This document shows positions 5,452 to 64,000 of a stretch of DNA of 64,000 nt, one piece after another. Source of the DNA: an uncultured Bacilli bacterium (GTDB lineage Bacteria > Bacillota_I > Bacilli_A > RF39 > UBA660); the NCBI GenBank assembly GCA_934162425.1, contig CAKPIS010000007.1:1128-65127 (forward strand). The letters run 5' to 3'. The position numbers were made by a program, and so were the translations under genes. The stretch's first letter is position 1. Each line of letters starts with the position of its first letter. The notes under the pieces are model-generated. The model ran no database searches and was not told where the DNA came from. It saw nothing but the letters and a program-made list of their open reading frames with translations.

Positions 5452-5730
5452 CTATTTATTTGTATTATTATAATAATTTAATTCTGATAATTTTCTTGAC
5501 ACTTCATCTAAATCATCAATATCTACTTCATAATTTAATATTTCTTCTATATCAAATATTAAATTATTTAAAGAGCTATATTTACTATAATCTATATCAT
5601 ATCTTTTTAATACTTCTATATCATTATCACTTAAATATATACCATTACCTCTATTTTTAATAAAGGATTTATCTTCATATACATCTTTAACTAATTTTTC
5701 TATATCTAGATTTTTATTATTAACTATCAA
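5452..5730 (-). CDS. hypothetical acidic protein
   Basis: 92-aa ORF abutting the downstream gene; no recognisable motif. Confidence 0.4.
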   Translation of the reverse strand: MIVNNKNLDIEKLVKDVYEDKSFIKNRGNGIYLSDNDIEVLKRYDIDYSKYSSLNNLIFDIEEILNYEVDIDDLDEVSRKLSELNYYNNTNK

Positions 5731-5740
5731 CTAAATCACC

Positions 5741-5799
5741 TTTTATATCATAACATAATTATCAAAAAAAGGACACTTTTGTATCCTAATTATTTTCTT
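5741..5799. repeat. 59-bp perfect direct repeat, copy A (contains a terminator hairpin)
   Basis: Identical to 6241-6299: TTTTATATCATAACATAATTATCAAAAAAAGGACACTTTTGTATCCTAATTATTTTCTT; spacing exactly 500 bp. Confidence 0.95.
5764..5787 (-). terminator. rho-independent terminator (copy inside repeat A)
   Basis: Minus strand AGGATAC-AAAA-GTGTCCT followed by U7; lies downstream of the 136-aa ORF. Confidence 0.55.
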
Positions 5800-5814
5800 T
5801 TGCATATTTTCATC

Positions 5815-6225
5815 TTAACTTACTATATAATGTATTATTTCTTCATCACTTTTTTTAGTGCCATCATAATTATAATAAATTAGTACAGTTTCAATTGCTA
5901 ATTTAAGCATCAACATATAAAGTATAAGTTCACGTCCATAACTGGTGTTTTTATATTTATTTATATATGTATCAGTTTTTCTTCTCATTTCCTTATCAAT
6001 TGGGATAATATTGTAATTAAATTTTTTTACTTTTTGTGTGAATGTATAAAATAATCCACAGTAATATTCATCTGTCATTTCAAGATTAAGTTCATAAATT
6101 GCCCTAGGAGTTTTTCTTTCATTTATACTTCTTACAAGATTTAAATCTGCCTCATATCTTCTTTTTAAAAAAAACTTTTCTTCATTTTTATCCATAAAAA
6201 TATTTATCCTTTCATTATTATACAA
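5815..6225 (-). CDS. hypothetical protein (single-gene cassette between the 59-bp repeats)
   Basis: 136-aa ORF, no recognisable motif. Confidence 0.4.
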   Translation of the reverse strand: MYNNERINIFMDKNEEKFFLKRRYEADLNLVRSINERKTPRAIYELNLEMTDEYYCGLFYTFTQKVKKFNYNIIPIDKEMRRKTDTYINKYKNTSYGRELILYMLMLKLAIETVLIYYNYDGTKKSDEEIIHYIVS

Positions 6226-6240
6226 ACTTAACGATTCGTT

Positions 6241-6299
6241 TTTTATATCATAACATAATTATCAAAAAAAGGACACTTTTGTATCCTAATTATTTTCTT
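6241..6299. repeat. 59-bp perfect direct repeat, copy B (overlaps the last codons and terminator of nrnA)
   Basis: Identical to 5741-5799. Confidence 0.95.
6264..6287 (-). terminator. rho-independent terminator of nrnA (copy inside repeat B)
   Basis: Same hairpin plus U7 as at 5764-5787. Confidence 0.55.
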
Positions 6300-7242
6300 C
6301 AATATTATATGTTTTACACATATTATTTAATTTTTCTATTATTTCATCAGCTTCACTAAATGAATTTAACTTAGCACCACAAGCATACATATGACCTCCA
6401 CCGTTATATTGTTCAAATAACTTATTAATAATAGGTCCTCTTGATCTCGCATATGCTCTAATTACATTATTTTTAACATCTTCAACAAATACAGTCCAAA
6501 CAATTAAATTATTAATATAATTATAATTATTCATTATTCCACCAATACTAGCTGAATCAACTTTATATTTTTTTAAATCATCTTTAGTAATTTTTATGCT
6601 TCCAACACCATCTTTTGTAATATTCATATTAAGAGAAATAAAGCCTTCTAACCTAACTTCACTAATATCTCTTCTATATAATTTACTATATAAACTGCTA
6701 GTATCTATATTATTTTCTCCAACTAATCTAGATACTATTTTATATGTATTTGGTGATGTAACTCCAAATAAGAATCTATTTGTATCAGCAATAATTCCTA
6801 AAAACAAGCACTGACTAGCATGTTTTGGAATTTTTAAATTAAATTCATAAGCTAGTGATGCTATTATTTCACAAGTACTAGATGCATTTTCATTTACTAT
6901 ATCGTATTTAGAAAATTCATCTATCTTAGGATGATGATCTATTTTTATTTTCTCTTTAAACTTATAAAAGTTAGCTGAGTCAATTCTTTTAATATCTGGT
7001 ATATCAAGTGCTATTAAAAGTGAAGATGAGCTCTCTTCTTCTGTAACTTTATCATGATGACCAAAAAACTTAAATTTAGAAATAGGAGATCCTACAACTT
7101 TTACATTTTTACCTTCAAAATTACTTTCTATTATTTCTTTTAATGCAAATGTAGAACCAAGTGCATCTGGATCTCCTCCAATATGTCTTGCAATTACTAT
7201 GTTATCGTACTTTTTTATTAAATCTAATAATTTATTTTGCAT
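6286..7242 (-). CDS. nrnA: DHH/DHHA1 family bifunctional oligoribonuclease / pAp phosphatase (NrnA-like)
   Basis: 318 aa; HIGGDPDALGS, DHH, C-terminal GGGH motifs. Confidence 0.75.
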   Translation of the reverse strand: MQNKLLDLIKKYDNIVIARHIGGDPDALGSTFALKEIIESNFEGKNVKVVGSPISKFKFFGHHDKVTEEESSSSLLIALDIPDIKRIDSANFYKFKEKIKIDHHPKIDEFSKYDIVNENASSTCEIIASLAYEFNLKIPKHASQCLFLGIIADTNRFLFGVTSPNTYKIVSRLVGENNIDTSSLYSKLYRRDISEVRLEGFISLNMNITKDGVGSIKITKDDLKKYKVDSASIGGIMNNYNYINNLIVWTVFVEDVKNNVIRAYARSRGPIINKLFEQYNGGGHMYACGAKLNSFSEADEIIEKLNNMCKTYNIEENN

Positions 7243-40466: not shown

Positions 40467-40577
40467 ACTATCAACACCCTATCATATAAATTATTATAAA
40501 TTAAAACCTTTTAAAAGTAAATAAGAACCCTTAATAATTTATAGAATATACTACTATTGTAAGTGAGGAGGATAAAT

Positions 40578-41573
40578 GTGAAAAAGAAAATTATTATAAT
40601 AATTTGCAGTCTTTTAGTATTGTTAGTAGGAACTTTACTAATTATAAAGATGCAAAAAAATGAAAAGAAAGATAATAATGAACTAAAAGAAGTTAAAGTA
40701 GCAGAAGTTGCACACACAATATTTTATGCACCCATGTATGCTGCTATAAGTAAAGACTATTTTAAAGATGAAAATATTAAAATAGATTTAAGTCTAACAG
40801 CAGGTGCTGATAAAGTTACAGCAGCAGTATTATCAGGTGATGTTGATATTGGATTTTGTGGCAGTGAAGCCACTATATATGTATATAATAGTGATGAAGA
40901 AGATTATCTTGTAAACTTTGCAAGATTAACTAAAAAAGATGGTTCATTTTTAGTATCAAGAAAAAAATATGATAACTTTAAACTAGAAGACTTAAAAGGG
41001 AAAAAAGTAATTGGTGGAAGAAAAGGTGGAATGCCTGAAATGACATTTGAATGGGGATTAAAACAAAATGGAATTGATCCTAAAAAAGATTTAAGCATTG
41101 ATACTAGTATAGCCTTTTCAGCTATGGAAGGGGCGTTTATAGGAGGTAATGGTGACTTTGTAACACTATTTGAACCTAATGCACTAAGTGTTGAAAAACA
41201 AGGTTTAGGATACGTTGTTGCATATGTTGGTGAATTTGGTGGTGAAGTTCCATATACTGCTTATAATGCAAGAAAAAGTTATATAGAAAATAATAAAGAT
41301 TTAATTAATGGATTTACAAAAGCTATTAATAAAGGGTTAAAGTATGTAAATGAAACAGATTCTAGTATAGTTGCAAAAGATATATATGAATTCTTCCCTG
41401 AATTATCATTAAATGATTTAACCGCAATCATTGAAAGATATAAAACAAATGAAGCTTGGCCTACTTCATCATATATAACAAAAAAAGACTTTGAACATCT
41501 ACAAGATATAATTATTAGTGCTGGAGAATTAGATAAAAAAGCACCATATGACAAATTAGTTTTTGAAGGATAA
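40578..41573 (+). CDS. ABC transporter substrate-binding protein, NMT1/THI5-like (NitT/TauT family)
   Basis: Signal anchor; ...FYAPMYAAISKDYFKDENI... pattern; GTG 40578 preceded by GAGGAGG. Confidence 0.8.
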   Translation: MKKKIIIIICSLLVLLVGTLLIIKMQKNEKKDNNELKEVKVAEVAHTIFYAPMYAAISKDYFKDENIKIDLSLTAGADKVTAAVLSGDVDIGFCGSEATIYVYNSDEEDYLVNFARLTKKDGSFLVSRKKYDNFKLEDLKGKKVIGGRKGGMPEMTFEWGLKQNGIDPKKDLSIDTSIAFSAMEGAFIGGNGDFVTLFEPNALSVEKQGLGYVVAYVGEFGGEVPYTAYNARKSYIENNKDLINGFTKAINKGLKYVNETDSSIVAKDIYEFFPELSLNDLTAIIERYKTNEAWPTSSYITKKDFEHLQDIIISAGELDKKAPYDKLVFEG

Positions 41574-41576
41574 GTT

Positions 41577-41999
41577 ATGAATGAACTCTTAAAAATAGAA
41601 GAGTTAGAAAAAAATTACTTATCTAAGAAAAATGCCATATGTGCTCTTAAGAATATTAATTTAACAGTTAATGAAAATGAGTTTGTAGTATTAGTTGGAC
41701 CATCTGGATGTGGCAAATCAACTATTTTATCAATAATTGGAAATTTAGAGAAAAAAAGTTCTGGTAATATTAAATTTAAAAATAATAATGTAAAAATAGG
41801 TTATATGTTTCAAGAGGACACACTATTTCCTTGGTTAAATGTTTTAGATAACTGTCTATTGGGACTTAAGATAAGAAAAGAGATAAATGAAAGTAGTATA
41901 TCCTATGTTAAAGGATTATTAGAAAAATATGGTCTTTCTGCATTTGAAAAAAGTTTTCCAAGAGAACTTTCTGGTGGTATGAGGCAAAGAGTTGCTTGA
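41577..41999 (+). pseudogene. ABC transporter ATP-binding protein, 5' fragment (interrupted by element 1)
   Basis: Walker A GPSGCGKST, Q-loop MFQED; ends inside the ABC signature LSGGMRQRVA followed by TGA. Confidence 0.85.
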
Positions 42000-47033: not shown

Positions 47034-47177
47034 TTGAAATACAATGTAGATGAAATTTATGATGAAAATTTAACTTATGATATTTTAAAAATAATAATTA
47101 ATCAAAAAATATATAATATCATAGAAAAGTTAGAATTTAATTTATGCCCAGATATGGATGGTAATTATATTGAATAA
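47034..47177 (+). CDS. possible small acidic protein overlapping the recombinase start (RDF candidate)
   Basis: Own reading: AGAGGTG-N6-TTG, 47 aa (KYNVDEIYDENLTYDILKII...); stop overlaps the recombinase start by 20 nt. Confidence 0.25.
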   Translation: MKYNVDEIYDENLTYDILKIIINQKIYNIIEKLEFNLCPDMDGNYIE

Positions 47178-48789
47178 TTTAAACAGAACGTTAAGAGTTG
47201 GCATTTATTTAAGATTATCTAATGAAGATAAAGATAAGGCTTATAAAAATGATGTAAGTGAATCAATTAAGAACCAAAGAAACATGCTTATTGAGTATAT
47301 TAATAAACACCCCGAATTTATACTTATAGATGAATATTCTGATGAAGATTTATCAGGTGCTGGGACATATAGACCAGAGTTCGAAAGATTAATTAAGGAC
47401 TGTAAAAACAGAAAATTAGATATAGTGTTATGTAAAAGTCAGTCTAGATTTTCAAGGGATATGGAAATCGTTGAAAGATATATAAATAACAAATTTAAAG
47501 AATGGAATATTAGATTTATTAGTTTAGTAGATAATGCTGATACTTTAATTTTAGGAAATAAAAAGTCAAGGCAAATAAATGGATTAGTTAATGAGTGGTA
47601 CTTAGAAGATGTATCTAATAATATTAGGAGTGCTTTTTTTTCTAAAATGAAACAAGGAGAATTTATTTCACCCTTTGCTTCACTTGGATATGAAGTTTCA
47701 AAAGAAAATAACAATAAATTAGTAATTGATAAAGAGGCTGCTTTAATTGTAAAGATAATATTCAATTTATATTTAATGGGTTTTGGATACATGAGGATAG
47801 CTAAATACTTAAATGATAAAGCAATCCCCTCTCCTTCACTATACAAGTATAAAAAAGGAATCAAATTAAATGTAATTAGTAATAAACCAAGGGATAAAAT
47901 TAAATGGAATTCATCTGCTATTAAAAGTATTTTATCAAATGAACTTTATTTAGGTCATTTAATCCAAGGTAAAAGAACTACCGTTAGCTATAAAAATCAT
48001 AAAATAATAAATAGACCTAAAAATGAATGGATAAAAATTAAAAATACACACGAAGCTATAATAGATGAAGAAACTTTTATGAAAGTACAAAAAGCTATGA
48101 AAGAAAGAACAAAGGTAGCTAAAAATACAGGTAAAATTCATAATTTTTCTGGAAAGGTCTTTTGCTTAGAATGCGATAGTTACATGAGAAAAAAAAATTC
48201 TAGCAAGCATGAGTATTTAGTTTGTTCTAATAATCAAGATAGTTGTTGCAAAAACAAGTCATCTGTGCGTTATGAAGTATTAGAAAATATTATTTTAAGT
48301 GAAATAAATAAAAAAATCAAAAGTTATTATGATGGGCAACTATTAAAAAAAGAAATATTAAAAAAGAAAAAAGCTATATCCCAAAAAAAACTTTCATTAT
48401 TAGAAAATCAAAAAAAAGAATTACTCTTAAATTTATCTAAAACAAGCAACTATTTACAAAATCTTTATGAAGATAAAGTTAATAATATTATTACTAAAGA
48501 GCAATTCGAAAGTTTAATTACAATTTATAATAATGATAGAGATAATTATAAAGAAAAGATTAAATTTATTAATAATGAAATTATACATTATAAAGAAAAA
48601 GAAAAGAATAATGATAACGATGAAAAGATTTTATGTAAATATCAAGAATTTAGCAAATTAAATAGAATTATTATCCAAGAATTTATAGATAAAATATATA
48701 TAGGAAAAATAAATAAAGAAGTTAAAGTAAGAGATATTAAAATAAAGTGGAATTTTAATATGTTAGAGGGAAAGATAAAAGTTTTGTAG
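47158..48789 (+). CDS. large serine recombinase (element 1)
   Basis: 543 aa; RVGIYLRLSNED catalytic-Ser segment, SRFSRD, recombinase and zinc-ribbon region (CLECDS...CSNN), coiled-coil tail. Confidence 0.85.
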   Translation: MVIILNNLNRTLRVGIYLRLSNEDKDKAYKNDVSESIKNQRNMLIEYINKHPEFILIDEYSDEDLSGAGTYRPEFERLIKDCKNRKLDIVLCKSQSRFSRDMEIVERYINNKFKEWNIRFISLVDNADTLILGNKKSRQINGLVNEWYLEDVSNNIRSAFFSKMKQGEFISPFASLGYEVSKENNNKLVIDKEAALIVKIIFNLYLMGFGYMRIAKYLNDKAIPSPSLYKYKKGIKLNVISNKPRDKIKWNSSAIKSILSNELYLGHLIQGKRTTVSYKNHKIINRPKNEWIKIKNTHEAIIDEETFMKVQKAMKERTKVAKNTGKIHNFSGKVFCLECDSYMRKKNSSKHEYLVCSNNQDSCCKNKSSVRYEVLENIILSEINKKIKSYYDGQLLKKEILKKKKAISQKKLSLLENQKKELLLNLSKTSNYLQNLYEDKVNNIITKEQFESLITIYNNDRDNYKEKIKFINNEIIHYKEKEKNNDNDEKILCKYQEFSKLNRIIIQEFIDKIYIGKINKEVKVRDIKIKWNFNMLEGKIKVL

Positions 48790-49851: not shown

Positions 49852-50193
49852 AGAGTTGCCTTAATTAGGACACTAGCTATTAAACCAGATATACTTCTTT
49901 TAGATGAACCGTTTTCAGCATTAGATTATCAAACTAGGATAAATGTATCTGATGATGTATATAAAATTATAAAAGAAGAGAAAAAAACAGCAATAATGGT
50001 TACACATGATATATCTGAAGCAATCGCTATGGCTGATAAAGTTATAGTATTAAGTAAAAGACCAGCTGTAGTTAAAAATAGTTATACAATTGAAATGGAA
50101 TGCAAAAACTTACCAAGCATAAATAGAAAAAATAAAAAATTTGACTACTATTATGACTTAATTTGGAAGGACTTTGATTATCATGAAAGCTAA
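49843..50193 (+). pseudogene. ABC transporter ATP-binding protein, 3' fragment
   Basis: Frame open from 49843: ..QRVALIRTLAIKPDILLLDEPFSALD (Walker B), MVTHD (H-loop); no start codon of its own until 49996. Confidence 0.85.
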
Positions 50194-50815
50194 AAATGAA
50201 TACAAGACTTACCTAAAAAAATTAAGAATATCAAAAATTAGAGTCTTACTTTGTCAAATATCAATATTTTTACTATTTATAATAACATGGCAAATACTTG
50301 CAGATAAAAATATAATAAGCACATTTCTATTTTCAAGTCCTACTAAAATAGTTCAAACCATAATCAATCTAGCTACTAAAAATGAATTATTTATTCATAT
50401 TCTAGTAACATTAAAAGAAATATTAATTAGCTTTACAATAGGTACAATAATAGGCATATTATTTGCAGCTATACTATGGCTTAGTCCATTTTTATCAAAA
50501 GTATTAGATCCATATTTAACTATACTTAATAGTTTGCCTAAAGTATCACTTGGTCCTATAATAATTATTTGGGCTGGAGCTAATCAAAATTCCGTTATAA
50601 TAATGGCACTTTTAATATCAGTTATATCAACTATTATATCAGTCTATTCTGGTTTTAAACAAACGAATAAAAATAGCATTAAGCTTCTTAAAAGCTTTAA
50701 TGCCAATAATTTTCAAATATTTACAAGTGTTATTTTTAAAGCTAATATAAATACAATTATAAGTTCACTTAAAATTAACCTATCAATGACCTTTGTTGGG
50801 CTAATGGTAATATGA
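50183..50815 (+). pseudogene. ABC transporter permease, 5' fragment (interrupted by element 2)
   Basis: Overlaps the ATPase 3' end as in an operon; 5 TM segments; ends ...LSMTFVGLMVI then TGA at the junction. Confidence 0.8.
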
Positions 50816-50836
50816 AGAGAAAAAATATTTTTAAAA

Positions 50837-52183
50837 TTAAGATATCTTATAAAATATCTCTATATCATTATCAGTTACCACAACTTTATCAATAATGTGC
50901 ATAATTATTATCCTTTTTTCTTCAAATGTCATTTTATTCCAAGTGTTTTGAAGATTTCTTAACATTTTTAATGAAACTCTATTTTGTTCTTCATTATTTT
51001 TTGAAATATCAATTATCTCTAATATTGACTTTCTTTCTTGCTCTAATTCTTCAATTTTCTTTTTAATGTCATCAACTGCAATACCATCTGAAATAAAATT
51101 AATCAAGTTGCCTATTTGTAAGTTTATCTTTGCAAATCTTTTTTCATATTCACTGATAACATCCACTTGTGTAATTTCGTATTTTTCTCTAAACAAATCT
51201 TCATCAAGTGCCATTGAAAATAAGTTTTCTAATACCACATCTTCAATTTCAAAGGAATCCCATCTTTTATTTTTGCAATTTGGATCTTTAATAAATTTGG
51301 GTTTACTTTTTTGTTGGGAGTAGCAGTAGCAAATCAATCTTTTTCCCCATTTTTGATATCTATACTTTGCACCACAGTGTCCACAAAATATTTTTCCTGA
51401 TAACAAATAATGACTTTCTGTTCTTGCTTTGCTTCGTAGTTTATTAGTTTCCATTATTTTCTTATGTAATTCTTCTGATATTACCGCTTCATGCTTTCCT
51501 TCGAATTCTTGATTCTTATATGGTACAATACCTAGCGTTCTTCTTGATAGTATTCTTTTTTCAACCATACTTTCATCCATACCAACTATATTACTAATTT
51601 TAACAAAACTATAACCATTTAAATAAAGATTTATCATTTTATGTAATAATTCTACTTGTTCTGGTACAGGAATTAAAGTTCCTGTATTTTTATCATAGGT
51701 ATAAGGGAATGGATTTTTCCCTCCACCTTTCCAATATCCATTTTCAGCTCTTTTTTTTATACCAATTTTCGTTCTTTCAAGTATCGTTTCTCTTTCAAGT
51801 TGTGCGAATATTGATAAAACACCGACCATAGCTTTACCAAATGGAGTTGTAGTATCAAAATTTTCTCTCACAGAAACAAAGCCCACATTATATTTATTAA
51901 ACACCTCTTCAATTAAATATAAAGTATCTTTTTGACTTCTTGATATTCTATCTAGTTTAAATACAATTACACAATCAATTTTATGAACTTTAACATCTTT
52001 TATGAGTCTTTGAATGGCTGGTCGTTCCAAGTCTTTACCACTATAACCACCATCAACATAATATTCATACTCGGTAAATTCTTTAGCTTTAGCATAGTTT
52101 AATAAAAATTCTTTTTGTGCATCAATTGAATAACCTTCTAATTGAATATCAGTTGAAACTCTAGCATATAATCCTGCTTTTAT
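50837..52183 (-). CDS. large serine recombinase (element 2), SpoIVCA/SprA-like; non-canonical or lost start codon
   Basis: The track ORF starts at TTG 52030, but the frame is open to 52198 and encodes (I)KAGLYARVSTDIQLEGYSIDAQ... (catalytic Ser). AAGGAGG at 52198-52192 is followed 8 nt later by ATA (52183). No ATG/GTG/TTG lies in between. Confidence 0.8.
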   Translation of the reverse strand: MKAGLYARVSTDIQLEGYSIDAQKEFLLNYAKAKEFTEYEYYVDGGYSGKDLERPAIQRLIKDVKVHKIDCVIVFKLDRISRSQKDTLYLIEEVFNKYNVGFVSVRENFDTTTPFGKAMVGVLSIFAQLERETILERTKIGIKKRAENGYWKGGGKNPFPYTYDKNTGTLIPVPEQVELLHKMINLYLNGYSFVKISNIVGMDESMVEKRILSRRTLGIVPYKNQEFEGKHEAVISEELHKKIMETNKLRSKARTESHYLLSGKIFCGHCGAKYRYQKWGKRLICYCYSQQKSKPKFIKDPNCKNKRWDSFEIEDVVLENLFSMALDEDLFREKYEITQVDVISEYEKRFAKINLQIGNLINFISDGIAVDDIKKKIEELEQERKSILEIIDISKNNEEQNRVSLKMLRNLQNTWNKMTFEEKRIIIMHIIDKVVVTDNDIEIFYKIS

Positions 52184-52677
52184 AACAATTACCTCCTTCT
52201 AACTATAAAAGCAGTCATATACTATATTAGATTGCTCTTACAGTATAACATACATTTCACAATTTATGTCTTAAATCAAAAAAATAAGGAAAAGTTCTGG
52301 TAAACTCTCCCTTAAGTATAACTACTTTTACTGTGAATATTTTTTAATTAGTTCATATATCAATGGTATCTTTATTACTATGTCTTTTGGGTTTATGATT
52401 TTACCATTTGAATCATAATTTGTTACTTTATTAGCCACTAATATAGTCGCCCCTAATTAAGTTTATTTTTATTTCATATAAATTATTCAGTCATAATTTC
52501 TCTTATATCAAATCACTCGTTATATACCAATATTTTCAATAGCATAATCAACGATATATTAGTATAATTTCCTATAAACTATTCTAAACCATCCATATCA
52601 TAATTATAGTTATTAAATATCAATTGAGAAAATTCTACATTTTTTCTTAACAATTAAAATTACCAAACAACATTTCC

Positions 52678-52714
52678 AAAAAAGTCTTGCTTTATTTAGC
52701 AAGACTTTAAAAAA
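52678..52714 (-). terminator. rho-independent terminator
   Basis: AAAGTCTTGCT-N6-AGCAAGACTTT with a U-run on the minus strand, just downstream of 52719. Confidence 0.55.
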
Positions 52715-52718
52715 CTAA

Positions 52719-53090
52719 TTAATCTTTTAAAATAACTATTTTTTTAACATTAGATAATTTAGCTGGTTCACTTGGTAATATCACATCGGATGAAGTAATA
52801 GTTACTTTTTGCTTTGCTTTTAATTTATCTGCAGCAGAATCTTCATTGTTATAAACTATTTTTGTATCTTTATTTATTTCAAATTCATACTCTATAGTAT
52901 ATTCTTTTTTCTTTTTGTCATATTCTTCCACTAAAACAGTATATACATTATTATTTACTGTTACTTCTTTAATTCTTGCTTCAAAAACCAATTCTTTTTC
53001 TTTTGAAACATAATTTGTATATATGAAGTATCCTAATCCTACAAGGACAACTACTGCTATAATTATTTTTACTAGTAAATCTTTTTTCAT
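52719..53090 (-). CDS. hypothetical membrane-anchored small protein
   Basis: 123 aa, N-terminal TM/signal anchor. Confidence 0.5.
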   Translation of the reverse strand: MKKDLLVKIIIAVVVLVGLGYFIYTNYVSKEKELVFEARIKEVTVNNNVYTVLVEEYDKKKKEYTIEYEFEINKDTKIVYNNEDSAADKLKAKQKVTITSSDVILPSEPAKLSNVKKIVILKD

Positions 53091-53130
53091 TTCTTCCCTC
53101 CTTTCCTAAATTAATTTATTTAAACTTATA

Positions 53131-54465
53131 TTATAAGAATCTATCCCAATAATATCTTCCTGTATTAGATAATGTTTTAAAATGCTCTTTAATTTGTGAA
53201 CTAATTAATTTTGCTTTTTTATTTATTGGAGTACCATCATTGTAACAAGATCTCTTTGTTGTTCTAGTCATCATATCAGAAAATAAAACAGCTCTATCTT
53301 CTAAATAACTTTGTCTTGAATAATACGATAAAAAATAAGCATTATTTGGATTGGAAAAATTATAATCATAAGTACTATCATTAGAACCATAACTAAATCC
53401 TTCAGGATTATATGATTTCATTATTTCTTCTAAGTTTAATGTTGAATTTTTTTGTCGCATATAAATATCAATATAGTGCATTAACTCATGGTGCAAAGTA
53501 CTTTCAAATAAACTAGTACCATTGGTTCCAATAGTTACTGTTATATTACTTTGATTTCTACCATCTGTCATACCTGAATAATTTCCATCTATTTTGTTAA
53601 CCATGTATATTCTAAGAGAAATATTATTATCCTTCATTTCTTTAAAAAAACCGTTTGGATATTTTTTTAATGTTTTCTCTACTTCTTTTAAATATTTATC
53701 TATCTCATTATCATCATTTAGTTTTTCAGTTTTTATAGAGCCACCGATTAAATAATCACCATTCTCATCTTTATATATGATTTTAACTGAATACTTATTT
53801 TCTAATGTTTTTCTATATTCATTATTTTTTTCTGCTTGAGTTTTTTCTACAACTGGTGGCTTTTCATCGGGTAAAATAGTATTTGTGTTATTGTTATTGT
53901 TTGTATTTTGATTAGGTTTATTAGTATTAGTACTACTATTGTTATTATCTGTATTAGTGTTTGTTTTAGATTTTTCAGTTTTAGTATTAGTTTTTTTATT
54001 TTCCATTTTTTCCCAAACAGCATAAAGGGTAGTATCTTCTGCAAGTAATACTTTGTTATAAATTGGAGTTTCATTTTTATCAACCCAGCCTTTAAAAACA
54101 TAGCCATCTCGTACAGGTTCTTTTGGAAGTGTAAGTTCAATATCTTTATTTATAGTAATACTATCTATTATGCTTCCACCTTTAGTATCAAATGTAATTG
54201 TTATTGCTTCTTTTATATCTTTTTCAATGTCATTCATAGGGCAAGCATATTTAGTCGTTTTTAAAACTGTTTTAGTTTTACCATCAGAACATTTATAAGT
54301 ATTTGTAAAAATCCCTTTATCTATGTAAACAGTAGAACCACCATCATAATAATCTCTAATTTTAATTATTTGACTATTATTAAATGAAAGAGCGATTATA
54401 AAATCTAAAAATATTAAACTTATTATAGAACATAGTGTGATTATTATTATTTTTTTCTTCTTCAT
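53131..54465 (-). CDS. secreted/anchored protein with a Listeria-Bacteroides (Flg_new) repeat and a putative HExxH metallopeptidase domain
   Basis: 444 aa; signal anchor; GYVFKGWVDKNETPIYNKVLLAEDTTLYAVWEK repeat; Asn/Thr-rich linker; STLHHELMHYID motif. Confidence 0.55.
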   Translation of the reverse strand: MKKKKIIIITLCSIISLIFLDFIIALSFNNSQIIKIRDYYDGGSTVYIDKGIFTNTYKCSDGKTKTVLKTTKYACPMNDIEKDIKEAITITFDTKGGSIIDSITINKDIELTLPKEPVRDGYVFKGWVDKNETPIYNKVLLAEDTTLYAVWEKMENKKTNTKTEKSKTNTNTDNNNSSTNTNKPNQNTNNNNNTNTILPDEKPPVVEKTQAEKNNEYRKTLENKYSVKIIYKDENGDYLIGGSIKTEKLNDDNEIDKYLKEVEKTLKKYPNGFFKEMKDNNISLRIYMVNKIDGNYSGMTDGRNQSNITVTIGTNGTSLFESTLHHELMHYIDIYMRQKNSTLNLEEIMKSYNPEGFSYGSNDSTYDYNFSNPNNAYFLSYYSRQSYLEDRAVLFSDMMTRTTKRSCYNDGTPINKKAKLISSQIKEHFKTLSNTGRYYWDRFL

Positions 54466-54636
54466 TATACCTCCTCACAAATAATAAACGAAAAGTGATT
54501 TACTTCTGTATATTAATTATATCATGAATTTCCCGATTTCAAAAAAGTTTTTAATTTGGTTGCTTTTTAGGTATCAATAATTTAAAAGAAAAAGACCAAT
54601 ATAAAATTGATCTTATCTATAAAACATATTATTAAA

Positions 54637-55197
54637 TTAACATTTTCCACCGTTATCTTTAAAATATGATTCAATATATTTTACTAATATTTTAGCTTTG
54701 TTAAACTGTTTATCTTTAACAATTTTTATAATATAATCACTACCACTTGCATCAATAATATTATCATCTTTATCATATTCTATTAGATAAGTATACTTTT
54801 CACCATTAAGTTGACAATTAAGAAGAACAGTTTGATTTTCTTTTATAGTCATAGAATTTTTTTTAGCACCAAACATAATATTTATGAAAATAGTAATAGC
54901 AAAACCAACAATAAAAATTATTCCCAAGACTTTTAGTATCTTAATTATTATCTCTGTATTTTTTTCGTTATTATTTACTTTTTCTACTAATACTTGTTTA
55001 ATGTCATTATTTAATAATTCATCAATACTTACTTTTAATGCTTTAGATAATAATTTTAACTGCTCTGGATTTGGTGAAGTTTCACCAAGCTCCCAATTTG
55101 ATATTGTTTGTCTAGTAACATCAACTTTTTCTGCTAATTGTTCTTGTGAAAGTTTACAATCTTTTCTTAATTTTAAAATGTTATCTCCTAATTTCAT
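54637..55197 (-). CDS. XRE-family HTH protein with TM helix
   Basis: LRKDCKLSQEQLAEKVDVTRQTISNWELGETSP; TM VLGIIFIVGFAITIFINIMF. Confidence 0.7.
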   Translation of the reverse strand: MKLGDNILKLRKDCKLSQEQLAEKVDVTRQTISNWELGETSPNPEQLKLLSKALKVSIDELLNNDIKQVLVEKVNNNEKNTEIIIKILKVLGIIFIVGFAITIFINIMFGAKKNSMTIKENQTVLLNCQLNGEKYTYLIEYDKDDNIIDASGSDYIIKIVKDKQFNKAKILVKYIESYFKDNGGKC

Positions 55198-55304
55198 TCT
55201 ATCTCTCCTTTCACTTACAATTATATATGAGTTGATATTTGCAATCTACCAAATGTCTTTGGAAGTTTGTCAAAGACTTTTAACAATTATAATACAAATA
55301 ACTA

Positions 55305-55685
55305 TTATTCTACATCACAAGACCAAAGTCCATGCTTATTACAATATGCATATAATTTTGATCCTTTTATATATTTGAATTTACATTCTGCACTTTGTTC
55401 TGGTGATAATTTAACTTTGCAAATATCTTTTTCATTAACTAGTGCAATCCATTCAATAAAATGTTCTTTTTCCATAACATGATTAACTTTAACAAGTATT
55501 TTATCATCACTATGTTCAAAAGTTGGAATATGTTTTTCAAACGATGCATCAACACTATTTGAAATTAACTTTATCATAGGTTCACAACAACAAGTTATTT
55601 CACAGTCGCCACAGTTACAATCATTAATTACCTCAACTATCGTTCCACACTTTAAACACTTTTTTATTATTAACTCACTCATCAT
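55305..55685 (-). CDS. desulfoferrodoxin (class I superoxide reductase)-like protein
   Basis: 126 aa; N-terminal CLKCG...CCCEPM desulforedoxin-like site; EKHIP, HVMEKEHFIEWI, YCNKHGLW match the Dfx centre II pattern. Confidence 0.75.
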   Translation of the reverse strand: MMSELIIKKCLKCGTIVEVINDCNCGDCEITCCCEPMIKLISNSVDASFEKHIPTFEHSDDKILVKVNHVMEKEHFIEWIALVNEKDICKVKLSPEQSAECKFKYIKGSKLYAYCNKHGLWSCDVE

Positions 55686-55835
55686 TTGTTTCCTCCTTTA
55701 TAACAATAGACTATCTTTAATAAATTTCTTCCATAACAGTATGAACAACATATTTCTGCCATAATTTTTTCTCTCAATTGCAATAAATATAAGTATATAA
55801 ACTGCTTCTAATTTTTTCCCCATACCTGCTATAAC

Positions 55836-56021
55836 GGTGTAATAATGGGAGAATTATTAGTATCTAAACAAGGCTTAGGTTACTTAATAAACTATGGTTC
55901 CCAAGTATTTAATATAAACTTAGTAATGTCAGGAATAATACTACTTGCACTTCTAACTAGTATTTTATACTTCGTAATATTATTTATAGAAAAAGCATTA
56001 AAAAATAACAAATCAATTTAA
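55836..56021 (+). pseudogene. ABC transporter permease, 3' fragment
   Basis: Own reading: GVIMGELLVSKQGLGYLINYGSQVFNINLVMSGIILLALLTSILYFVILFIEKALKNNKSI*, typical C-terminus of NitT/TauT permeases. Confidence 0.75.
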
Positions 56022-56029
56022 TATAATTA

Positions 56030-56078
56030 AAGAATACATGATAATTTCTTTACATAGTAATTATCGTATTCTTTTTTT
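56030..56078 (+). terminator. long hairpin terminator between convergent genes
   Basis: AAGAATAC..GATAATT-loop-AATTATC GTATTCTT followed by T6. Confidence 0.55.
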
Positions 56079-56105
56079 ATTTAATTTAAAAAATAAATTT
56101 ATTTA

Positions 56106-56879
56106 TTAATAACTTTTAGCACTACTACTTAAGTATCTTTTTCTATCCCATAACTTACTAGGAAGCAAAGTAACATATATAGTAGCTGTATCCCCATTAA
56201 TTACTACATCATCTACTTTAGATAAACTATCTTTGTTAATAAGATATTCTGCCTGACTAGTAGAATACGTTAAATCATCATCTAAAAGAAGTGCACCAGA
56301 TGAATAATTACCATCTATCTTATATACTATCTCAACGTTGTAATTAATACCCCTTTCATTTTCTTTATTAAAAAAATGACTACCATTAATAATAGAAGTA
56401 CTAGTAAAAGCTTCTTCATAAATAAATTTATTTTTTAAATTAACTAAATCTTCTATATTATTTATACCATAGTCTTTAAAATAAGATAATGTAACACCTC
56501 TATAAGTATTAAAACATAAATCTATAGGTGGAAACGTATCAATTAACTTTTCTATTTTCTTACCCTTTTCTAAATAATCTCTTTTAATATTATCATCTAA
56601 TTTACCATTTTCATAATAATTCCATTTATGTCTTAATATAGCATTAATATTTCTAAAATTATACCCTGTATAACTTCTTATACTCTCTAAATCATTAAAT
56701 GTTAATCCATTTTTAAAATCTTCTATCTTTTCATTAAATACCCTATATAATGTATCTCTATCATTAAAACTAACTGGTCTTACACCATCTATATAATTTA
56801 AATAATTATAAGAATCATCTTTTTCAGCATCACTCATATATCTTAATATTAATTCTACTGTTTTATTTTTATCTTGCAT
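56106..56879 (-). CDS. ADP-ribosyltransferase, C3/exoenzyme-like (R-S-E class), no signal peptide
   Basis: 257 aa; YTGYNFRNINAILR, TYRGV (Arg), FTSTS (STS), SQAEYLI (QxE). Confidence 0.7.
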   Translation of the reverse strand: MQDKNKTVELILRYMSDAEKDDSYNYLNYIDGVRPVSFNDRDTLYRVFNEKIEDFKNGLTFNDLESIRSYTGYNFRNINAILRHKWNYYENGKLDDNIKRDYLEKGKKIEKLIDTFPPIDLCFNTYRGVTLSYFKDYGINNIEDLVNLKNKFIYEEAFTSTSIINGSHFFNKENERGINYNVEIVYKIDGNYSSGALLLDDDLTYSTSQAEYLINKDSLSKVDDVVINGDTATIYVTLLPSKLWDRKRYLSSSAKSY

Positions 56880-60484: not shown

Positions 60485-60503
60485 TTAAATAGCATAAAAA
60501 AAA

Positions 60504-60605
60504 TTGGCAACTACCTATTTTCGCTTACACTATCGTCGGCGTTAAAGTGCTTAACTTCTGTGTTCGGGATGGGAACAGGTGTATCCACTTTGCTATCGTC
60601 ACCAA
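60504..60605 (-). rRNA. rrf: 5S rRNA (apparently short, ~102-108 nt; ends approximate)
   Basis: Reverse complement reads TTGGTGACGATAGCAAAGTGGATACACCTGTTCCCATCCCGAACACAGAAGTTAAGCACTTTAACGCCGACGATAGT...GTTGCCAA. Confidence 0.8.
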
Positions 60606-60660
60606 TTAAATTAGAGAAATAATTCTCTGAAAACATGATAATATGGTCAACAAATTAATA

Positions 60661-63574
<2,914 letters not shown>

Positions 63575-63762
63575 ACCATTGTTATATCTAATTTGATGAG
63601 ATCATTTGAGAGATCTTAATGTCATATTTCCGTTGGAGAAAATATGACTACCATATTATCAAGTTTTCAAAGAACTATTTTTCTTGAGAGAAATAATCTC
63701 TCAAAACTAAGCAAAACGTTTAAATTTGAATAGCTAATCGTAATTATTAAATCTTTCTCCAT

Positions 63763-64000
63763 AGAAAGGAGGTGATCCATCCCCACCTTCCGGTAGTGAT
63801 ACCTTGTTACGACTTCACCTCAATCGCCTGTCCTACCTTAATCGGCCCCCTCCTAAAAGGTTAGGCTACCGTTATCAGGTATTACAAACTCTCGTGGCGT
63901 GACGGGCGGTGTGTACAACACCCGGGAACGTATTCACCCCGACATTCTGATTCGGGATTACTAGCGATTCTAGCTTCATGAAGTCGAGTTGCAGACTTCA
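63763..64000 (-). rRNA. rrs: 16S rRNA, 3' part (continues beyond the window)
   Basis: AGAAAGGAGGTGATCC...CCTTGTTACGACTTCACC...TGACGGGCGGTGTGTACAA on the plus strand is the reverse complement of the 16S 3' end. Confidence 0.95.

Follow-up and report, generated by a model that had tools for sequence, protein, structure and literature searches.

A serine-recombinase element that splits a transporter permease gene at a conserved glycine codon, and its site-specific family in uncultured gut Bacilli

Does a permease gene that stops at about three quarters of its length, with a start-less frame resembling its missing C-terminus some 5 kb downstream, represent a decayed gene or a single gene opened by a mobile element, and in the latter case where exactly was it opened and by what? 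The question is raised by a 64,000-nucleotide stretch of DNA from an uncultured Bacilli bacterium (contig CAKPIS010000007.1), referred to here as the window, which carries on its plus strand a three-gene ATP-binding cassette (ABC) transporter operon for a binding protein, an ATPase and a permease. Two of these genes are in pieces, the ATPase gene being split by what we call element 1 and the permease gene by element 2, the subject of this work. The binding protein is SsuA/NMT1-like, with scores below the cut-offs, and an Rfam scan of the window for a riboswitch that might name the transported substrate matched ribosomal RNAs (rRNAs) only. The parts of the operon are the following:

40563-41573, plus strand: binding-protein gene.
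41577-41999 and 49996-50193, plus strand: ATPase gene, in two pieces split by element 1.
50174-50799, plus strand: permease N-terminal fragment, NitT/TauT-type (BPD_transp_1), matching intact homologues up to ...MTFVG.
55836-56021, plus strand: start-less permease C-terminal fragment, GVIMGELLVSKQGLGYLINYGSQVF...KNNKSI and stop codon.

A first-pass annotation of this DNA, made from the sequence alone, had read one permease gene interrupted by an element with a large serine recombinase (LSR) at its left end, and this reading is supported. The N-terminal open reading frame (ORF), read as 50174-50815, indeed ends in ...LSMTFVGLMVI followed by TGA at 50813-50815; the frame that opens at 55836 reads GVIMGELLVSK...KNNKSI to its stop codon without a start; and the joined protein gives one unbroken BPD_transp_1 match that spans the junction (PF00528, E 7e-19).

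The exact limits of the element were obtained by comparison with uninterrupted genes. Thousands of intact homologues of the joined protein were found by search, the closest of which (P0001) is 97% identical, and all 11 that were aligned, this one included, read ...INLSMTFVG-VIMGELLVSK..., without the residues LM. The gene for P0001 lies on L001 and L002, two short metagenome contigs whose DNA is about 98% identical to the window flanks, and the comparison with close relatives that the annotation had recommended thus finds in both an uninterrupted, empty site, ATGACCTTTGTTGG/TGTAATAATGGGAG, also written ...TTTGTTGG/TGTAATAATGG... (TTGG/TGTAAT, the slash marking the junction). The only bases common to this site and to the two attachment sites of the integrated element, attL and attR, are GG. 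Cutting out 50800-55837 leaves an 801-nt ORF that aligns without gaps to L002 (781/801 identical), and the 60-nt junction so formed is found verbatim in both L001 and L002. Taking into account the homologues without LM, the empty sites, the gapless deletion and the verbatim junction, element 2 is placed at 50800-55837 (5,038 bp), and its crossover would be the GG of a conserved Gly codon:

50798-50799, plus strand: predicted crossover dinucleotide GG at attL.
55836-55837, plus strand: predicted crossover dinucleotide GG at attR, positions one and two of the Gly codon GGT.

Authentic permease coding sequence therefore stops at the GG, and five element-derived codons (the completed Gly and LMVI) lead to the TGA, so that the permease is truncated after residue ~206 of 266 (~77% of its length). 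The sites reconstructed by exchange at this dinucleotide are CAATGACCTTTGTTGGTGTAATAATGGGAGAATT (also given as ...ATGACCTTTGTTGGTGTAATAATGGGAGAA...) for attB and CCCCATACCTGCTATAACGGGCTAATGGTAATATGAAGAG for attP.

Two other readings of the junction were weighed against this one. The annotation had set the crossover on a hexamer, GTAATA, with an element of 5,032 bp, a gene restored to ...FVGLMVIMGELL... and a junction TTGTTGGGCTAATGGTAATAATGGGAG. The hexamer does occur at both ends (50807-50812 and 55839-55844), and deleting 5,032 bp does keep the frame, but this reading is almost certainly wrong. It retains the residues LM, which are present in no intact homologue, and the homologues, which are not continuous across the GTAATA join, are continuous across the GG join, where they read ...MTFVG-VIMGELL...; its deletion leaves a 6-nt gap against L002, the empty-site contigs having TTGG/TGTAAT; and the GG junction recurs in divergent elements without a shared GTAATA. 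The GG lies 8-9 bp upstream of the hexamer at the left end (50798-50799, with its counterpart at 55836-55837), and the size of the element has to be corrected by 6 bp, to 5,038 bp. The hexamer is shared because the P' arm of the element (GCTAATGGTAATA) resembles the B' arm of the host (TGTAATAATGG), and the junction string that had been suggested for a search of reads would miss, since it is built on GTAATA. The same annotation had raised, as an a priori possibility, that the two fragments belong to different paralogues, to which an assembly chimera can be added. The probability of either is negligible: the fragments abut exactly in sequence and in frame and match a single 97%-identical intact protein from end to end, the window has no second copy of the permease, and the same structure is present in at least eight independent assemblies.

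The ends of element 2, in which no convincing terminal inverted repeats had been recognized, do carry such repeats, and these are conserved across the family of related elements described below:

50800-50825, plus strand: P' arm, left terminal inverted repeat GCTAATGGTAATATGAAGAGAAAAAA, conserved in the family, an imperfect inverted repeat of 55812-55835.
55812-55835, plus strand: P arm, right terminal inverted repeat TTTTTTCCCCATACCTGCTATAAC, conserved in the family.

Together with the dinucleotide, the ends read TTTTTTCCCCATACCTGCTATAAC-GG (55812-55837) and GG-GCTAATGGTAATATGAAGAGAAAAAA (50798-50825), and the pattern of the repeats is TTTTYTCCCCATACC...GG...GGTAnnATGrAGAGAAAA. The symmetry is best appreciated in locus L056, where the reconstructed attP is a nearly perfect palindrome, TTTTCTCCCTGTGGGGGTAATAG-C-GG-A-CTATTACCCCCAGTGGGAGAAAA; around C-GG-A, 22 of 26 half-site positions are identical in L056 and likewise in L036, and in L056, L036 and L057 the near-palindromic attP has GG exactly in its middle. 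In the window and in L011, GG is the sole shared core. A predicted non-palindromic 2-bp crossover, common to attB, attP, attL and attR and flanked by imperfect inverted half-sites, is the arrangement of a serine integrase. The sequence TGGGAGAA (coding for M-G-E), which is the outer motif of the B' arm in the host, appears again in the P' arm, displaced outwards by 4-7 bp (mode 6), in 20/20 elements. In the A118 family, the motif recognized by the zinc-ribbon domain of the integrase sits about 5 bp closer to the centre in attB than it does in attP (PMC3783163), and the B'/P' offset found here, if analogous, would be close to that shift. No further att-like site is present within the window.

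Is this one insertion, or the habit of a family? Relatives of the recombinase number hundreds in public data, and a scan of species-representative genomes gave 59 loci with relatives 57-95% identical. Nearly all are metagenome-assembled genomes of gut origin (human, ruminant, rabbit and mouse) that carry the labels uncultured Bacilli, Tenericutes, Mollicutes or Erysipelotrichaceae. Their arrangements are:

47/59 loci: permease N-fragment convergent to the recombinase, in 45 at 65 bp or less from the recombinase stop and in two at ~340 bp.
5/59 loci: permease C-fragment co-directional with the recombinase, within 41 bp.
4/59 loci: no flanking sequence in the contig.
3/59 loci: another arrangement.

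Hence a permease fragment adjoins the recombinase in 52 of the 55 loci with usable flanks, and all loci with readable junctions are broken at the GG of this one Gly codon. Recombinases 90-95% identical occur in hosts whose permeases share only 45-57% identity with that of the window, from which it follows that the elements move between species. These comparisons show a horizontally spreading, site-specific element family in uncultured gut Bacilli. In a large computational survey of LSRs (Durrant et al. 2022) the term 'site-specific' was given to distantly related LSRs that target one target-gene cluster (PMC10083194); that defining pattern is exactly the one of the family described here, which we call permease-Gly, and the word 'permease' is absent from the main text of that article.

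A few loci depart from the common layout. In L035, L042, L067, L070 and L076 the recombinase abuts the permease C-fragment in the same direction, that is, the gene order is flipped relative to GG with the insertion point unchanged. In L032, one of the three loci with another arrangement, the recombinase is located 1.3 kb inside an 8.75-kb element, still within a split permease. L045 has an apparently intact permease (5652-6407) 1.5 kb past the recombinase, together with a separate C-fragment (16-162) with a normal attR arm; it may represent a duplicated target or an element with a replacement copy of the permease.

The recombinase itself has been annotated correctly as to place and strand, and its frame is intact:

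50837-52183, minus strand: large serine recombinase of 448 aa, catalytic Ser10 in YARVSTDIQ.

Its 3' end is about 37 bp from attL. The protein has the Resolvase, Recombinase and Zn_ribbon_recom domains: the catalytic domain PF00239 covers residues 5-150 (E 5e-39) and includes YARVS(10)TDIQ, PF13408 is matched with E 1e-10, and PF07508 is just above its cut-off (21.4 bits versus 21.1). A full-length match links it to phrog_95, a family of phage integrases (E 7e-110). The label 'SpoIVCA/SprA-like' that it had received is appropriate at the level of the superfamily but not more closely, since among solved structures the catalytic domain is nearest to TP901-1 integrase (E 1e-31); TnpX is matched at E 1e-13 and SPbeta YokA/SprA at 5e-7. 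NCBIfam gave CcrB as best match with 146 bits against a cut-off of 900, and XisF with 113 bits against 375. The view that element 2 is a second element, unrelated to element 1, stands: the two recombinases are ~26% identical over the N-terminal 320-380 residues, and each element occurs without the other.

The start of the recombinase is unusual. An ATA codon (52183-52181) stands 8 nt after the Shine-Dalgarno (SD) sequence GGAGG (52196-52192), with an in-frame TAG at 52201-52199, all on the minus strand. The arrangement GGAGG-N7/8-ATA-AAA-GCA was found in 47/50 species-level loci (among L003-L078), the other three having ATG (two) or ATC (one), which points to ATA as a putative conserved AUA start codon of the recombinase family. 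As this start is non-canonical, gene callers miss it and give truncations of 397 or 436 aa, or extensions through the ribosome-binding site. Between the recombinase SD and the small ORF upstream there is a further feature:

52285-52314, minus strand: terminator-like hairpin followed by a T-run.

At the equivalent place L014 has a perfect hairpin. Expression of the recombinase is probably kept very low by the upstream terminator and the conserved AUA start. A promoter scan was not used, because in this AT-rich DNA it found 46 promoters when 44.5 were expected in shuffled sequence.

What travels with the recombinase? Across the family the backbone is constant and has three parts, namely attP, the LSR and a small ORF 35-45 codons long; a stringent motif search detected this ORF in 61 loci, at 18-148 bp upstream of the recombinase. 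The copy in the window had no match in PHROGs, and its product is a candidate directionality factor or regulator. This ORF and the remaining genes of element 2, which are cargo common to its closest relatives, are:

52328-52438, minus strand: conserved 36-aa ORF of the backbone, MANKVTNYDSNGKIINPKDIVIKIPLIYELIKKYSQ.
52719-53090, minus strand: 123-aa protein, membrane-anchored or secreted, which matches DUF3221 weakly and is conserved among the closest elements.
53131-54465, minus strand: exported protein of 444 aa, in which a Listeria-Bacteroides repeat and an Asn/Thr-rich linker accompany a LIC13305-like domain at the C-terminus that contains HELMH.
54637-55197, minus strand: 186-aa Xre-type helix-turn-helix (HTH) regulator with a membrane segment.
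55305-55685, minus strand: 126-aa desulfoferrodoxin-like protein (putative superoxide reductase), below the NCBIfam cut-off.

A defence system was looked for among the cargo with PADLOC, which gave generic HTH matches only. Elsewhere in the family the elements vary in size between 2.6 kb (L028) and over 10 kb and differ in cargo, which includes ABC exporters, two-component systems, RhuM-like proteins and P-type ATPases, and Mob_Pre relaxases in the larger elements.

Comparison with known systems indicates where such an element belongs. TP901-1 and the Listeria A118/phi10403S integrases have the same set of catalytic, recombinase and zinc-ribbon domains. As with these phage-type integrases, element 2 is inserted site-specifically inside a conserved host gene, at a predicted 2-bp crossover with imperfectly symmetrical half-sites, and its integrase gene abuts attP. 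Integration by the A118 family inactivates comK, and precise excision restores it. Unlike the phages, element 2 is only 5 kb long, is devoid of structural, lysis and replication genes, has a different target gene and attB, and instead of a recognizable recombination directionality factor has only the conserved 36-aa ORF. Its phage-type content according to Pfam and PHROGs is confined to the integrase and the Xre-type regulator, with none of the capsid, tail, terminase, lysis or replication genes by which a prophage is known. That element 2 is a recognizable phage was considered and ruled out on these missing structural genes and on the searches for relatives, in which IMG/VR phages gave only a 27%-identical protein and no close one, and GenBank phages a recombinase identity of at most 41%.

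The clostridial elements Tn4451/Tn4453 (TnpX) and Tn5397 (TndX) are likewise small (~5-6 kb), depend on an LSR for excision and integration, have a dinucleotide at each junction, and carry accessory cargo. They differ in using many GA-containing targets and in having a mobilization gene, whereas the permease-Gly family has one fixed GG site and the window copy has no relaxase; for the same reason it lacks one mark of an integrative and mobilizable element (its own integrase together with a relaxase and/or oriT), although distant members of the family (L017-L019, L056) do have a Mob_Pre relaxase. A promoter formed at the circular joint, as in Tn4451, cannot drive the recombinase of the window, because this gene reads toward the end of the element. 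Staphylococcal cassette chromosome (SCC) elements, moved by Ccr recombinases, are similar in being non-conjugative, non-phage islands of variable cargo inserted by an LSR at one conserved chromosomal site, but they enter the 3' end of rlmH without inactivating it, whereas the permease here is truncated at ~77%, and the Ccr scores of the recombinase are below the cut-offs. With skin (SpoIVCA) and SPbeta (SprA) there is in common a gene split by an LSR-bearing element whose scarless excision would rebuild it. The resemblance of the recombinases is of superfamily level only, the target is a transporter and not a sporulation gene, and strains of the species differ in whether they have the element, which other species share; with an XisF score of 113 bits for the 375 required and an ABC permease as target, element 2 is not of the developmental excisase type. 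The permease-Gly element is, in sum, a known kind of integrative element with a newly defined target site.

Within the species of the window, the same 5-kb element is found at the same place in eight independent assemblies (contigs with ~98%-identical recombinase). The states of the two elements are:

Element 2 present, element 1 present: window, L004, L005, L007, L010.
Element 2 present, element 1 absent (intact 250-aa ATPase): L003, L006, L008, L009.
Element 2 absent, right end of element 1 present: L002.
Element 2 absent, status of element 1 not determinable: L001.

The mixture of states among strains indicates that elements 1 and 2 come and go independently. It shows presence/absence polymorphism of element 2 within the species, which is not in itself excision.

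Element 1 splits the ATPase gene (41999/49996) at residue ~137-140, just after the LSGG signature. Relatives of its recombinase (58-71% identical) are near the operon in at least 14 other species (loci L014-16, L018, L025, L027, L028, L031, L033, L039, L068, L072, L073 and L075). A third ATPase position (residue ~191-195) is the point of the split in L045, L056 and L057, where yet another recombinase adjoins it. The operon is thus a recurrent landing pad for several serine-recombinase families. The recombinase of element 1 (47158-48789) carries DUF4368, a domain associated with multi-targeting recombinases (PMC10083194); despite this, its relatives recur at one ATPase position.

How did the element enter the gene, and can it leave? 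Very probably it integrated by an LSR-catalysed exchange between attP and attB at GG, with inactivation of the permease. We propose a mechanism in which attB is provided by the most conserved stretch of the permease gene, ...S-M-T-F-V-G/V-I-M-G-E-L.... In attP the recombinase would recognize two half-sites of ~25 bp, one to either side of GG and not perfectly symmetrical; those in attB would be shorter. Strand exchange would take place at the GG of the Gly codon. The permease would be inactive as long as the element is in place, and precise excision at GG would restore the gene exactly. The comparisons show the insertion, its exact junction, the fixed site, the polymorphism within the species and the spread between species, whereas catalysis by the encoded LSR, current competence for excision, the role of the 36-aa ORF and the transfer route are here matters that we infer. 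Several observations weigh on the other side. The shift of motif that relates B' to P' has no clear counterpart in the B/P pair of arms. The recombinase has no ATG, GTG or TTG start, and its expression from ATA is argued from conservation only. Pfam and PHROGs found no relaxase, replication or phage structural genes in the element. In the window copy a single private substitution affects each of the two conserved outer att motifs (TTTTTTCCCC versus TTTTCTCCCC, and ATGAAGAG versus ATGGAGAG), which might weaken binding. A degenerate 26-mer search for attP, or the circular junction, in one JGI metagenome collection with seemingly few gut samples found none, its only two matches being chance ones in contigs of 64% GC without recombinase or permease; it is uninformative on excision. 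Finally, the empty sites could be never-occupied alleles instead of products of excision.

The start codon, the lack of transfer genes, the two private substitutions and the unfound attP junction would also suit an immobilized relic, integrated by the LSR and now unable to excise or transfer, with the permease a permanent pseudogene in this lineage; and, since the operon is also broken by element 1, selection for restoration would be weak. Such a relic is possible, though we consider it doubtful, because the ATA start is the norm of the family (47/50 species) and not a lesion, the frame of the recombinase is intact and ~98% identical to the copies in eight other assemblies, the small ORF of the backbone and the att arms are intact, and the family has clearly moved between species recently. 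At the opposite extreme, the element could be a programmed intervening sequence or genetic switch comparable to skin, SPbeta or the comK phage, whose regulated, host-controlled excision would restore the transporter. The scarless excision expected at GG, the unusual low-expression control of the recombinase by terminator and AUA start, and the repeated interruption of the same operon, at up to three sites, are in line with it; we nevertheless regard it as very unlikely, given that absence from some strains, exchange between species and variable cargo are typical of a selfish mobile element, that the target is not a developmental gene, that no evidence of excision was found in the metagenome collection scanned, and that many genomes, the window included, would need two excisions to restore the operon. 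A joint version, in which the operon is a dedicated landing pad (ATPase ~137-140 and ~191-195, permease Gly206), the elements are reversible switches of the transporter and disruption is selected, is in our estimation unlikely as well. Under it, the output of the recombinase would be set by a conserved module of micro-ORF, terminator and AUA start, and through this start excision could become sensitive to the conditions of translation initiation, such as the level of IF3; the transporter might then be, for instance, an entry route for a toxin or a phage. The integration of a mobile element by its own LSR at GG is therefore the reading that we retain.

For annotation, the consequence is that a split permease next to a 'truncated' 397-aa recombinase has to be read as an intact element within one gene and not as decay. 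The locus also provides a natural set of attB, attP, attL and attR, with a predicted central dinucleotide GG, for what appears to be a previously undescribed site-specific family of serine integrases. Its hosts are dozens of uncultured low-GC gut Bacilli with hardly any genetic tools, whose development usually begins with such integrases. That one small transporter operon is targeted repeatedly by different recombinase families is modestly puzzling, and makes the operon a useful marker for typing strains in metagenomes. The split gene itself is ordinary; the value for specialist follow-up is in the fixed site across the family, the AUA start and the operon as landing pad for several recombinases.

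Some observations concern the surroundings of the element. The TGA at 50813-50815 of the window is TGG in the sister strains L003-L010, where the permease fragment continues for 236 codons and overlaps the 3' end of the recombinase; the G-to-A change of the window sits within a conserved outer att motif. Reading this TGA as Trp (genetic code 4) was considered and dropped, since this codon belongs to an att arm that does not encode protein, and code 11 leaves long ORFs intact. Outside element 2, between the permease stop and a prepilin-type (N_methyl) gene, there is a stretch of ~850 bp (56009-56862) with an ADP-ribosyltransferase exoenzyme-like gene (56106-56879, minus strand, PF03496). This stretch is present in all contigs with element 2, and the empty-site contigs L001 and L002 have 23 bp in its place. 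Further downstream, an rRNA operon occupies the minus strand at 60502-64000 (5S at 60502-60606, 23S at 60660-63574 and the 3' end of 16S from 63765), with a GC content of 40-50% as compared with ~25% for the remainder of the window.

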